A DNA stretch of 64,000 bases, from positions 1 through 64,000 of IMG/VR virus record IMGVR_UViG_3300017917_000405. One strand, written 5' to 3'. Both the position numbers and the translations under genes were made by a program. The DNA comes from a virus. Positions 59,788-63,808 of the stretch are shown in pieces. The notes beneath the pieces are model-generated. The model was not told the origin of the DNA, searched no databases, and saw only the letters and a list, made by a program, of their open reading frames with translations. Position 1 is the first letter of the stretch; each line of letters begins with the position of its first letter.

Positions 59788-59889
59788 ATGCCAAAGGAAT
59801 TCAAGATCGCCATCGTTCCCGCCGTTGCATTGTTCGCGCTTTGCACCTACATCTGTATGTCAGCCCTGCGTGCTATCTTTGCTTTCTAG
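59788..59889 (+). CDS. Membrane microprotein (33 aa)
   Basis: MPKEFKIAIVPAVALFALCTYICMSALRAIFAF; GAAAGG/AAGGA RBS. Confidence 0.55.
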   Translation: MPKEFKIAIVPAVALFALCTYICMSALRAIFAF

Positions 59890-60368: not shown

Positions 60369-60524
60369 TAGACTTGACAAACCCATTGATTTGGGTCCGG
60401 CCCCGAAATGTCCTATTTACGAAGTATGTACTTTTTCACAGAAAATATAACAGGTTTATAACAATATTGTTTATCATTTCGTTATAAATCAATGTCCGTT
60501 TTGTCATATCTACTCGTCAGTAAA

Positions 60525-60546
60525 TGTCAGACCCCTCTGATAGTTT
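60525..60546 (+). promoter_or_regulatory. TGTCAG-N10-TAnnnT promoter copy 1
   Basis: TGTCAG ACCCCTCTGA TAGTTT. Confidence 0.7.
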
Positions 60547-60634
60547 GTTTCTAGTAGAAAGGATTCACTTATGTTCATGTACATCATCTCCCTTGATTGT
60601 TCCCCCTGGAATGTCCCCGTCGTCTGCGATGAAA

Positions 60635-60656
60635 TGTCAGACCCCTCGGATAGACT
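60635..60656 (+). promoter_or_regulatory. TGTCAG-N10-TAnnnT promoter copy 2
   Basis: TGTCAG ACCCCTCGGA TAGACT. Confidence 0.7.
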
Positions 60657-60710
60657 TCACCCATCAATGATGAATCACATTGTCGATATCGAAACGATTG
60701 GATTGGTAGC

Positions 60711-60881
60711 ATGAGTACCCCCACCCTTCACCTTGCTGTCTGCCCGCGCTGTGCAGAAAACTTCCTCTCAACCTTTGAGGCAATCGACGATTGGGAAGAT
60801 GTTTGCGAGAAGTGCTACGAGGACTTCCTGCTTGACCTCTACCCCGACCTTGACTGGCAAGCCGAATACCACCACCTTTAG
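60711..60881 (+). CDS. Zinc-finger microprotein (56 aa)
   Basis: Manual translation with CPRC...CEKC and an acidic tail. Confidence 0.6.
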   Translation: MSTPTLHLAVCPRCAENFLSTFEAIDDWEDVCEKCYEDFLLDLYPDLDWQAEYHHL

Positions 60882-60888
60882 GAGAAAC

Positions 60889-61089
60889 ATGACTTACACA
60901 TTCACTACCCCATTCCTCCGCATTGATTGGCAGGAGGGTTCTCATACTGCTAACGTCACCACCGTTCGTGGAGATATGGACGTTTTCACGTTCGCATGGC
61001 ACAAAGACTATCCCGATGTTGTGGACTTCACCGAAGCCCTTGCATCATGGGTCAACTACTCGCTCACCGTGGAGGACGCTAATGTCTAA
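60889..61089 (+). CDS. Hypothetical protein
   Basis: AGGAGA RBS; MTYTFTTPFLRIDWQEG... Confidence 0.65.
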   Translation: MTYTFTTPFLRIDWQEGSHTANVTTVRGDMDVFTFAWHKDYPDVVDFTEALASWVNYSLTVEDANV

Positions 61090-61213
61090 CTATCTTGACT
61101 ACCTTCCCGAAGATGGCAACTTCACCGAAGATGAACTTTGGGACGCGATTGCAGAATCATTAGACGTTGATCCAGATGAGATCAGCGATGGAGATTTGGT
61201 GGACTACCTGTGA
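61082..61213 (+). CDS. Very acidic microprotein
   Basis: GGAGG RBS; MSNYLDYLPEDGNFTEDELWDAIAESLDVDPDEISDGDLVDYL. Confidence 0.65.
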   Translation: MSNYLDYLPEDGNFTEDELWDAIAESLDVDPDEISDGDLVDYL

Positions 61214-61419
61214 GCGATTACTTTATCTATCACCCAGGATCAGGAACAATGATCGCATTGTCAGATACTGTCTATGTCATTGACGCAACCTCTTTGACTG
61301 AACTAGAACTAGATGAATCAGAGGCAGGAGTGTTAGATATCTATCGCGTGATGGATATTGGTGTTCGCCTTGATAATGAATATTGGGACGAAGTACAAGA
61401 TGCAATGGAGGCAATGTAA
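61210..61419 (+). CDS. Acidic hypothetical protein
   Basis: GTGA coupling to the upstream gene. Confidence 0.6.
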   Translation: MSDYFIYHPGSGTMIALSDTVYVIDATSLTELELDESEAGVLDIYRVMDIGVRLDNEYWDEVQDAMEAM

Positions 61420-61565
61420 TGAAAACTAATAGAGAACTCAATCCAACAGAGTTTGAGATTGCATTCCAACTAAAGAATGCGTTAAACGAGTTGAGAAACT
61501 ATCAAGATATTCCCGCTGCTATTGAGCATATCGAATCAGCACTTACAAATCTGTATGAGTGGTGA
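61419..61565 (+). CDS. Small helical protein
   Basis: GGAGG RBS and TAATG coupling; MKTNRELNP... Confidence 0.6.
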   Translation: MKTNRELNPTEFEIAFQLKNALNELRNYQDIPAAIEHIESALTNLYEW

Positions 61566-61751
61566 CTTGACAAACTGAGATCTCGGGGCCGGACGGAACA
61601 AATCGGACATTTACGACAACCTAAAAAAGTCACGGAAATGTAACAATTTTTATTTTTATCGGCGTGTCAACTTGACAGACATATCGGACATATCTCCGTT
61701 ATCAAACCGTAATAAAACCTGTCCGTTTTGTATGTTTTTAGAATTAGGTAA

Positions 61752-61773
61752 TGTCAGACCCCTAGTGTAGAGT
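61752..61773 (+). promoter_or_regulatory. TGTCAG-N10-TAnnnT promoter copy 3
   Basis: TGTCAG ACCCCTAGTG TAGAGT. Confidence 0.7.
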
Positions 61774-61800
61774 GAGGGTACTAGTTAGAAAGGCTACAAA

Positions 61801-62070
61801 ATGATTCACGGTATTTACACTCCAATTTCAATGACTGCCGCCGATATTATTGGCGAGGAAACTATCATGGGAAGTGGCGGTGCGCCTGTCGTTATCCGTC
61901 GCGTGTCTAATGATTCTAAGACTGTCACTTTCATGGACGTGTACCGTGGAAAATTGTTCCGATTCCGCAAAGATCAAGCGGTCACAGTCCTTATCCGAGA
62001 GGACGAAAATGACCCTATCGTGCAAGCGGAATTGGCTTGTGCATTAGCAGATAAGGGGGTACAATTCTAA
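61801..62070 (+). CDS. Hypothetical protein (SH3-like beta barrel)
   Basis: GAAAGG RBS downstream of promoter copy 3. Confidence 0.65.
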   Translation: MIHGIYTPISMTAADIIGEETIMGSGGAPVVIRRVSNDSKTVTFMDVYRGKLFRFRKDQAVTVLIREDENDPIVQAELACALADKGVQF

Positions 62071-62071
62071 T

Positions 62072-62209
62072 ATGATAAAGAATCGTAAGCGTACCCGTGA
62101 GGAAATTACCCGCGTGCAGGAATTGCGTCGTAGTAATGCTGCCATGCCTCACAAGAACAAGTCACGTTACACCCGCAAGGTGAAGCATAAGGGGCAAGCG
62201 TATGCTTGA
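62072..62209 (+). CDS. Basic microprotein (45 aa)
   Basis: MIKNRKRTREEITRVQELRRSNAAMPHKNKSRYTRKVKHKGQAYA. Confidence 0.65.
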   Translation: MIKNRKRTREEITRVQELRRSNAAMPHKNKSRYTRKVKHKGQAYA

Positions 62210-62278
62210 GTTTATTCTAATCCTCGCCTGCTCTATTATCGGTGCTATCATTCTCGCCCTAGAACTCTAAGGAATAAA

Positions 62279-62383
62279 ATGAAAATTGATCTAGACTATG
62301 ACGCGCAATGCTATTGCGTAGATTGCTGCCCCGAAGGGTGTTGCCCTTGTGAGGACTGTAATGAGCCTTGCGACTGTCCATAA
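62279..62383 (+). CDS. Cys-rich metallothionein-like microprotein (34 aa)
   Basis: MKIDLDYDAQCYCVDCCPEGCCPCEDCNEPCDCP; TAAGGA RBS. Confidence 0.55.
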   Translation: MKIDLDYDAQCYCVDCCPEGCCPCEDCNEPCDCP

Positions 62384-62460
62384 CCTAATTCCATTCTATT
62401 GCGAACCCTGCCAGGAAATAGAGTTTTTCTGTGATACCTGCGGGGAAAACCTAATCGACT

Positions 62461-62482
62461 TGTCAGACCCCCATGCTAAGGT
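62461..62482 (+). promoter_or_regulatory. TGTCAG-N10-TAnnnT promoter copy 4 (leaderless)
   Basis: TGTCAG ACCCCCATGC TAAGGT, then 6 nt and the ATG at 62489. Confidence 0.72.
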
Positions 62483-62488
62483 GAACCC

Positions 62489-63040
62489 ATGATTAAAGAA
62501 ATTATCGCTGCCAATACTGTCACCCTCTACACGGAACGCTTTCGCTTCCTCGCCCTTCAAGCCACTATGTCACAGATTGAGTCTGCTGCAACGTGGTACT
62601 ATGACGCGCAGGAGGTTGCGGAGGACGTTGCGGAAAACTTAGGCGTATCGCTTGAGATCGGTGCTTCCATCGTTGCCGCATTCTCACCTCGTGAGCGTTG
62701 GGCAAGCAATGTTGCTAAGGCTCTCGCATTCTCATTAGGCAAGCCCGTTGCAGGATTGCAGAATAACTACCGTATGGCAGAACGTTCGATGGAATTGGGC
62801 TTTGACGCGCTCAACGGACTAAAGACTAATGCGTTCGCTCGTGCTATTGCAGGCGATAATGACGCGGTAGTTATTGACGTATGGATGTGCCGCGCTGCTG
62901 CTATTGGCACAGATTCACCTAACAAAACACAGTACAACGATCTGTCGCAAGCGGTTCGCAATGTTGCGGAAGAAATGGGAGTAACACCGCGCACCATGCA
63001 AGCACTAATTTGGATTATCATTAGAGGGAGTGCAAACTAA
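62489..63040 (+). CDS. Conserved phage protein, HhH-glycosylase-like
   Basis: WY...AAFSP...W..N, K..AF, VVIDVWMCR and QALIW. Confidence 0.6.
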   Translation: MIKEIIAANTVTLYTERFRFLALQATMSQIESAATWYYDAQEVAEDVAENLGVSLEIGASIVAAFSPRERWASNVAKALAFSLGKPVAGLQNNYRMAERSMELGFDALNGLKTNAFARAIAGDNDAVVIDVWMCRAAAIGTDSPNKTQYNDLSQAVRNVAEEMGVTPRTMQALIWIIIRGSAN

Positions 63041-63583: not shown

Positions 63584-63808
63584 ATGAGCGAATCTACTGA
63601 AACCATCGAAACCGCATATCAACTCAATGCAAATGATAGGTGTGATAAGTGTCAAGCACAAGCATATTTCTGGGTGAATGGAGTAGCAGGGGATCTTCTT
63701 TTCTGCCGCCATCATTTCTTGGAAAATGAAGAAAAAATTCGTGCTTATGCCTTTGAAATTGTAGATGAATCTGATAAGATCAACGAAAGGTCTGAATCAA
63801 GTGCTTAG
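63584..63808 (+). CDS. Small zinc-binding protein of an actinobacterial family
   Basis: LNANDRCDKCQAQAY...LLFCRHH; leaderless start. Confidence 0.7.
   Translation: MSESTETIETAYQLNANDRCDKCQAQAYFWVNGVAGDLLFCRHHFLENEEKIRAYAFEIVDESDKINERSESSA

Follow-up and report, generated by a model that had tools for sequence, protein, structure and literature searches.

Which protein reads a promoter-like element that recurs, with an unvarying internal spacing, in front of a run of small viral genes? The question is raised by the IMG/VR virus record IMGVR_UViG_3300017917_000405, a sequence of 94,728 bp whose bases 1-64000 form the window considered here, i.e., the whole 64,000-nt stretch of DNA that was analysed; record and window share one numbering. 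Four exact copies of TGTCAGACCCC lie on its + strand (60525, 60635, 61752 and 62461), just where a preliminary description of the window had placed them, against 0.01 expected from dinucleotide-preserving shuffles. As that description also held, exactly 10 nt separate the box TGTCAG from a TAnnnT hexamer in all four (TAGTTT, TAGACT, TAGAGT and TAAGGT in turn). The general form TGTCAG-N10-TAnnnT occurs five times in the window against 0.74 expected, a count reached by no shuffle. A pyrimidine followed by A occupies the sixth and seventh bases past the hexamer in 4/4 copies, and the transcription starts predicted in Table 1 are therefore placed on that A. In the fourth copy the hexamer ends 6 nt before the ATG at 62489, and the predicted start is the A of that very ATG, in keeping with the earlier remark that this copy adjoins a start codon; a leaderless mRNA can be predicted here.

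A scan of the entire record with a position weight matrix (PWM) recovered eight sites on the + strand, all between 59.8 and 66.7 kb, and one on the - strand (78859), the best score on shuffled sequence being 8.0; the matrix was built from sites picked by a regular expression, so that in these scores independent evidence comes solely from the positions that the expression leaves free. Thus, the four copies first described are sound, but they are fewer than the full set. The box TGTCAG is present in 8/8 of the + strand sites, and the gap measures exactly N10 throughout the record; with N9-11 permitted, just two unrelated + strand matches are gained (52624 and 75779), both outside the block. No -35-like hexamer is seen at six of the eight. 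The least certain is the site at 59858, which has no pyrimidine-A at +6/+7. Promoter 1 precedes a 47-aa open reading frame (ORF; 60571-60714), its predicted target, while promoter 2 sits within that ORF and has as its predicted target the small-ORF run from 60711 to 61565; the leader of promoter 3 contains a GAAAGG ribosome-binding site followed by the ATG at 61801.

Table 1. Features of the small-gene block and of the remainder of the record; all positions are in record numbering
Feature	Position	Strand	Remarks
Weak candidate promoter site, TGTCAGCCC-N7-TATCTT	59858..59879	+	PWM 9.5; 20 nt before ATG 59899 with AGGAGG ribosome-binding site
Promoter 1, TGTCAG(ACCCC)-N10-TAGTTT, TGn before hexamer	60525..60546	+	PWM 28.3; predicted start A 60553
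Promoter 2, TGTCAG(ACCCC)-N10-TAGACT	60635..60656	+	PWM 35.5; predicted start A 60663
Promoter 3, TGTCAG(ACCCC)-N10-TAGAGT	61752..61773	+	PWM 31.7; predicted start A 61780
Promoter 4, TGTCAG(ACCCC)-N10-TAAGGT, TGn	62461..62482	+	PWM 35.8; predicted start A of ATG 62489
Further sites of the same architecture	64046, 65490, 66677	+	Whole-record scan
Operon of six small ORFs: 47, 56 (Cys4 zinc-ribbon-like), 66, 43, 56-69 and 48 aa	60571..61565	+	
Small-ORF operon: 89 aa; 45 aa (p45); ~22-aa hydrophobic peptide; 34 aa; 43 aa	61801..62492	+	
p45, 45 aa, highly basic	62072-62209	+	Consensus ELRRSNAAqPvRNKKkYtRKiKHK
DUF7178 protein, 183 aa	62489..63040	+	PF23802, E 6e-34; predicted leaderless start at promoter 4
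DUF7455 protein, 74 aa, same block	63584..63808	+	69 bits
Five tRNA genes: Asn-GTT, Thr-TGT, Ile-TAT, Arg-TCT, Gly-TCC	71834-73132	-	
WhiB-like gene	78964-79137	-	PF02467, 44.6 bits; beyond window

The architecture is not peculiar to this genome. A search with the DUF7178 protein, encoded directly behind promoter 4, yielded 18 related IMG/VR loci at 45-76% identity, and the scan of related phages that the preliminary description had proposed finds 2-19 co-oriented sites of the same architecture in 17 of them. The relatives repeat the arrangement of promoter 4 before a start codon, which in one locus (L007) fits the start of DUF7178, and in three near-complete relatives (97-102 kb) a single strand and a single block of ~8-10 kb contain nearly all of the sites. 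A strict pattern derived from the consensus occurs in at least 120 further IMG/VR contigs, while the backwards-read control gives ~0; most of these contigs have many relaxed sites with a strong strand bias, and 71/120 have at least one early gene in common with the present phage. In total, 137 IMG/VR loci, related or motif-bearing, contain 893 unique sites, which are co-oriented with genes and amount to 8-26 per genome in the clade; the collecting pattern fixes N10, and these sites do not test the spacing independently.

The positions outside the search pattern are nonetheless strongly constrained: in a 148-site subset, A stands at -30 in 91%, TG at -15/-14 in ~80% and pyrimidine-A at -1/+1 (the A in 88%), and the ACCCC that follows the box is conserved as well. 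An ATG or GTG lies 6-7 nt past the hexamer at ~12% of the 893 sites, pointing to leaderless mRNAs, a hallmark of Actinobacteria, and ~70% are followed by a leader with a GAAAGG-type ribosome-binding site; ~5-8% of the clade sites are hybrids with a -35 element. Because the off-pattern positions are conserved and start codons or ribosome-binding sites lie downstream, the sites are, on the evidence of sequence, genuine promoters of fixed geometry. The box is followed by ACC in 42%, TGG in 24% and TCC in 8% of the phage sites; the form TGTCGGTGGC-N6-TAnnnT is used throughout one locus (L017), and most other phages, this one included, use TGTCAG-ACCCC. As a separate observation, the regions upstream of several of these promoters are paralogous modules (window 60369-60520 and 61566-61750; genome 65440-65480 and 66630-66665) that have in common CTTGACAAAC, the 11-nt CGGGGCCGGAC in opposite orientations, GTCCGTTTTGT, and TTTACGA followed 12-20 nt on by TCACRGRAA; TCACRG occurs at most 45 nt upstream of only 32 of the 893 clade sites.

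The known promoters that these sites most closely match are the RecA-NDp promoters of actinobacteria (e.g., recA P1 of Mycobacterium tuberculosis and M. smegmatis, and recA of Streptomyces rimosus), which are read by the host activator PafBC. The published PafBC consensus, tGTCgg(N10)tA(N3)T, places the box at -23 to -28 and combines a canonical SigA -10 hexamer with the lack of a -35 element, the GTC triplet being read by R46 and R50 of PafB (PMC8635444); the cell contains PafBC constitutively, and single-stranded DNA (ssDNA) activates it (PMC8635444; PMC11804915). The conserved pyrimidine-A start 7 nt past the hexamer places the phage box at -28 to -23, and both groups have TGTCRG at that place, an invariant 10-nt gap, TAnnnT, a start 7 nt past the hexamer and the ACC, TGG and TCC variants; a -35 is usually lacking, as at six of the eight phage sites here. 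The promoter of S. rimosus recA, TTGTCAGTGGC-N6-TAGggT (PMC2375139), has the very form used in locus L017. The RecA-NDp form invoked in the preliminary description, TGTCRG-N10-TAnnnT, thus agrees in its geometry with both the published consensus and the host recA promoters, and the phage sites are by their sequence RecA-NDp-type promoters. They differ in being viral, in number (8-26 per ~10 kb), in their position before small genes, in their AT-rich context, in the very frequent TGn and the strongly conserved A at -30, and in the fusion of some to a -35; for the phage sites, binding by PafBC is putative.

The same motif can be recovered from host chromosomes when one starts from the phage alone. 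A 31-nt degenerate pattern made from phage sites only was searched in 185,579 prokaryote genomes, one per species, and gave 34 matches, of which ~24 fall in Actinomycetota chromosomes, including Lentzea (9), Kibdelosporangium, Rhodococcus rhodnii, Rothia, Ca. Planktophila, Pedococcus, Phycicoccus, Kitasatospora, Actinosynnema and an Acidimicrobiaceae metagenome-assembled genome (MAG), among others. Among the ~10 remaining matches, eight are MAG contigs, short and low in G+C, that have 2-12 sites apiece and probably represent actinophage DNA binned wrongly (candidates L165, L166, L168, L170, L171, L172, L175 and L181); the MAGs are labelled Methylococcus, Bacteroidia, Rhodobacteraceae, Phycisphaerales, Bacteroidetes, cyanobacterium and Legionella. 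Among the genes downstream of chromosomal sites are those for DUF222+HNH proteins, for a protein with a WGR domain and for an SF1 helicase of 1247 aa that has an RNase-H-like domain; DUF222+HNH is the REP13E12 type, which shows RecA-independent damage induction in M. tuberculosis. The genome of Lentzea alba has 85 copies of TGTCRG-N10-TAnnnT, against 10 for the control, and that of R. rhodnii has 145, against 34, with the ACC(CC), TGG and TCC subtypes in the same spectrum as in the phages. The recA promoter of L. alba is of the ACCCC subtype, TGTCAGACCCC-N5-TAGCGT beside a LexA box (the sequence before the gene being written as TGTCAGACCCCGCCAGTAGCGT or aaaatTGTCAGACCCCGCCAGTAGCGT), and that of Planktophila is TGTCGGTGGC-N6-TAGTGT (TGTCGGTGGCCTCCTATAGTGT), again with a LexA box. 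Since the same boxes precede recA in both, the phage motif, ACCCC included, corresponds to a native recA-type damage promoter. The possibility that the motif-bearing Planktophila contigs were phage DNA within single-cell genomes was rejected, as they have no portal homologue and contain recA and pafBC-like genes. In two Ca. Planktophila chromosomes (L153 at ~181 and 2323, -; L163 at 6407, -) an ACCCC-type promoter is followed by a conserved stretch of ~45 nt, ctagctcaagaagtaagtcataagccctccggctgacttgctgc, present twice in one Planktophila genome and once in another species, which might represent either a small RNA or a conserved leader.

As to the phage itself, it is most likely a virulent phage of an actinobacterium as judged from its gene content. 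Its portal and DUF932 proteins share ~54% identity with their counterparts in Streptomyces cluster BE phages (Stanwilliamsviridae); at the DNA level, no similarity of the region to cultured phages was found. The presence of a WhiB-like gene, together with Streptomyces phages as the closest cultured relatives, makes an actinobacterium the probable host. Searches for an integrase or a resolvase in the phage found none. One candidate host lineage is Ca. Planktophila, a streamlined freshwater actinobacterium, since many related contigs come from lake MAG sets. It has tandem WYL ORFs, one of which matches the PafBC chain of PDB 7P5X at E 7e-41, and its PafB-like protein keeps both GTC-reading arginines (R46/R50; SRMFERDK). 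On the side of the phage, Pfam, PHROG and NCBIfam scans of the called ORFs of the record detected no WYL, sigma, HTH_11, MotA/AsiA-like or other recognisable regulator, the WhiB-like gene apart; the absence of a phage sigma factor or WYL gene, first remarked on for the window, thus extends to the entire 94,728-bp record, in which there is no WYL or sigma-70 region 2 domain.

The explanation that accommodates these patterns is that the phage promoters depend on host PafBC reading the box, which, from the sequence likeness, seems probable. The promoters comprise a -26 box, A-n-TGTCAG-ACCCC at -30 to -18, usually a TGn, the hexamer TAnnnT and a predicted A start 7 nt on, mostly with no -35, and would be transcribed by the host housekeeping RNA polymerase (RNAP). 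The WYL-domain activator PafBC of the host would bind the box through the helix-turn-helix (HTH) of PafB, with arginines 46 and 50 on GTC, and, once activated by ssDNA, bridge to region 4 of sigma-A ("sigma adaptation"). The small genes would then fire when ssDNA appears in the infected cell, whether its source is the resected ends of phage DNA, an intermediate of replication or recombination, host DNA under attack by nucleases, or damage by UV. Their mRNAs would either be leaderless or begin with a leader of 20-35 nt that contains a ribosome-binding site of the GAAAGG type. The binding by PafBC, the ssDNA trigger and the early timing are what we infer; a role of the small genes in takeover or anti-defence may likewise be envisaged. 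That these genes are early is itself only probable, since the timing is deduced from gene content and synteny. In its full form the account would be that a large, mostly freshwater clade of lytic actinophages has made PafBC its early/middle transcription factor, via recA-type promoters copied before nearly every gene of the pre-early block, that infection itself (through DNA ends, replication or nuclease attack) or earlier UV damage switches the programme on by sigma adaptation, and that the box copies, hundreds of them as the phage DNA replicates, compete for PafBC with the damage and defence regulon of the host; to this larger account we give a probability of about 0.45, i.e., somewhat short of even.

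Several observations weigh against PafBC as the reader. Seven cultured actinophages whose hosts have PafBC (BillNye, NootNoot, Yvonnetastic, Bachita, Francesca, Big4 and Sheen) do not have the TGTCRG motif, which is hence no general feature of actinophages. The conservation of ACCCC extends well past the GTC triplet that PafB reads, so that there may be another reader, and the extended -10 (TGn), found in 71% of the 893 sites, can work without an activator, so that PafBC may be dispensable or merely modulatory. The sites at 65490 and 66677 have a perfect TTGACA 2 nt upstream of the box, with an 18-nt spacer, whereas the published PafBC complex uses no -35. Genome-wide enrichment of the motif is not seen in two Planktophila genomes (1 Mb; about a dozen sites, no more than in the control). 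Many early proteins have no annotation, which leaves room for a novel phage activator; one of them, p45, co-occurs with the motif in 51/120 motif-bearing viral loci and has no homologue among 50,697 cultured-phage records and no family assignment. To these is to be added the limit already given for the matrix scores. Canonical TTGACA-N17/18-TAnnnT promoter-like sites without the TGTCAG box occupy the right half of the small-gene block (genome 64390-69103, +), which suggests that the block holds two promoter classes. The earlier view that box-type promoters drive the early block is to be amended on two points, since the right half uses ordinary -35/-10 promoters and two sites have an added -35; the phage is therefore not wholly dependent on box-type promoters. 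The ordinary promoters at 64.4-69.1 kb, together with the hybrids at 65490 and 66677, would probably give PafBC-independent expression.

These observations can be turned into an alternative, in which an unrecognised phage activator binds the box and recruits the host RNAP in the manner of MotA/AsiA of phage T4, the canonical promoters (64.4-69.1 kb) expressing the factor first; the likeness to host promoters would then reflect mimicry, or capture of a PafB-like DNA-binding specificity. Two promoter classes in one block recall an early-to-middle cascade, most small early proteins are indeed without annotation, ACCCC is conserved beyond what PafB reads, and cultured actinophages on PafBC-positive hosts do not use TGTCRG. 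The protein p45, found with the motif in those 51 loci and absent from cultured phages, is a lead for a phage cofactor, an ESM Atlas search with it having been uninformative; yet p45 itself lies behind -26-type promoters. Moreover, no HTH, WYL, sigma or MotA/AsiA-like domain was found in any called ORF, the promoter stays constant amid extreme variation in early gene content, and the full motif (ACCCC, TGG and TCC) is abundant at host damage-regulon genes including recA, so that a reader already exists in the host. Such an activator is accordingly held to be unlikely, as is the mimicry or capture that it would entail.

An improbable alternative of a different kind does away with PafBC altogether: the sites would be self-sufficient extended -10 promoters served by RNAP-SigA alone, with the box as an operator for a repressor or other host factor, or as a spacer that tunes promoter strength. 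The frequency of TGn (71%) and the two sites with a consensus -35 and an 18-nt spacer would accord with this, as would the Streptomyces phage NootNoot, in which TGTCYY lies within the promoter spacer and a TTGnnn -35 is mostly present. In the present genome, however, a correctly spaced TGn is found in only 3/7 of the strong + strand sites (PWM 11.7 or more), while the box is kept in 7/7; it stands, moreover, at exactly -28 to -23, with invariant spacing, as the PafBC element does, and identical boxes precede host recA and damage-regulon-type genes.

More remote still is the prospect that the boxes, dozens to thousands of them, act chiefly as a sponge that titrates PafBC off ~100 host promoters and so blunts the damage response or damage-induced defences, with transcription secondary: the 8-26 sites per clade genome can be set against ~85-145 in large host genomes and about a dozen in the 1-Mb Planktophila, and nucleases and helicases are among the host genes behind such promoters, but a decoy has no need of co-orientation, promoter distance, -10 hexamers, a start nucleotide, start codons or ribosome-binding sites. 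A sponge role and transcription through PafBC are, for that matter, not mutually exclusive. Other candidates were set aside: the second mycobacterial WYL activator, SiwR, since its 19-bp palindrome (PMC10693628) misfits the asymmetric box; the DUF932 protein as a motif-specific factor, which occurs in 621 cultured-phage records, those scanned being without TGTCRG; and a temperate, damage-induced prophage switch, which is unlikely given that no phage WYL, sigma factor, HTH_11, integrase or resolvase was found.

A comparison with cultured phages places the proposed activation through PafBC in a wider setting. The nearest parallel in design is with the middle promoters of T4, a comparison already drawn for PafBC itself (PMC8635444). 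In both, an activator box ~12 bp upstream of a normal -10 replaces the -35 (in T4, the MotA box at -30), and many copies are found in the prereplicative region beside ordinary early promoters; T4, however, encodes its own activator and co-activator (MotA/AsiA, acting by sigma appropriation), while none is recognisable here and the box is a host regulon motif. A link of phage transcription to host DNA-damage sensing is also familiar from LexA-controlled phage genes, i.e., SOS-inducible prophage switches such as tum of coliphage 186 and rstA of CTX-phi, which are repressor operators in temperate phages and govern induction. Here, by contrast, one has an activator-type promoter, a phage without a detected integrase and a whole block of genes.

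Among the cultured relatives of cluster BE, NootNoot (BE2, Stanwilliamsviridae; L026) has seven co-oriented TGTC(C/T)(C/T)-N10-TAGA(C/G)T sites in each ~10-kb terminal repeat (record 1.3-9.3 kb and 121.6-129.6 kb), before small genes and mostly with TTGnnn 2 nt upstream; no TGTCYY-type sites were found in BillNye (BE1). The small-gene block of NootNoot is homologous to the present one, DUF932 included, and GTC has the same position and spacing, although TGTCYY replaces TGTCRG, a TTGnnn -35 is mostly present and the function is putative. Because the NootNoot sites lie in the homologous block of a terminal repeat, the comparison suggests that the present block is the counterpart of a terminal-repeat region that is injected first, and that the GTC at -27 predates the clade. 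A parallel might also be struck with the pre-early genes of T5, which lie in its terminal repeat, the DNA of first-step transfer, behind strong ordinary sigma-70 promoters. Both blocks consist of many small genes, each with its own promoter, and in the BE relative the block is in a long terminal repeat; the differences are the ordinary sigma-70 promoters of T5 and, in the present record, a 99-bp repeat that looks like an assembly overlap.

As regards the genes behind the promoters, the six-ORF operon has only weak zinc-ribbon matches in Pfam. Homologues of the DUF7178 protein are found chiefly in Mycobacterium, Gordonia, Rhodococcus and Microbacterium phages, and in some phages of these four genera they bear the annotation "glycosylase" or "N-glycosylase". 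The + strand block, mostly of small genes, spans 55.6-69.7 kb and is flanked by - strand genes at 0.3-55.3 kb and 69.9-94.5 kb, which include those for the portal, protease, terminase, DnaB, DnaE, primase, RecA, RuvC and ribonucleotide reductase. The 99 bp common to both ends of the record are probably an assembly overlap, and the G+C content of the window ranges over 32-47% along its length. The phage has a notable DNA-repair gene set, with a pyrimidine-dimer glycosylase (Pyr_excise), RecA and RuvC; of its five tRNAs, whose anticodons match A/T-rich codons, 4/5 read A-ending codons, which would suit a low-G+C phage on a host of higher G+C. The WhiB-like gene is masked by a longer spurious + strand ORF (78922-79272), and directly downstream of it lies the sole - strand site of the promoter family (78859, of the TGTCAGAGG type).

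Full-text literature searches, motif strings included, found no prior description of PafBC or RecA-NDp promoters in phage genomes. The promoter type is known; what appears, on present comparisons, to be new is that a clade of virulent phages employs it wholesale, and we know of no described precedent for a virulent phage that hijacks a host stress activator instead of bringing its own. In practical terms, the collection offers ~900 natural promoter variants from which the needs of the -26 element might be dissected, flags the ACCCC subtype as a major native class, and supplies in the motif a simple signature by which actinobacterial hosts might be assigned to uncultured viral contigs and phage sequences mis-binned in MAGs be recognised; NootNoot provides a culturable system for the promoter type. 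"Sigma adaptation" has so far been a matter of the host DNA-damage response only, and if phages use PafBC, the timing of early genes would be explained for large actinophages without a sigma factor or RNAP of their own. If true, it would also offer a reason for the effect of PafBC on phage infection in mycobacteria, a subject on which one article (PMC12848934) cites a 2025 paper in ACS Infect Dis dealing with PafBC and mycobacteriophage resistance. The development of these phages would then be tied to DNA damage and, in lakes, to exposure to UV.

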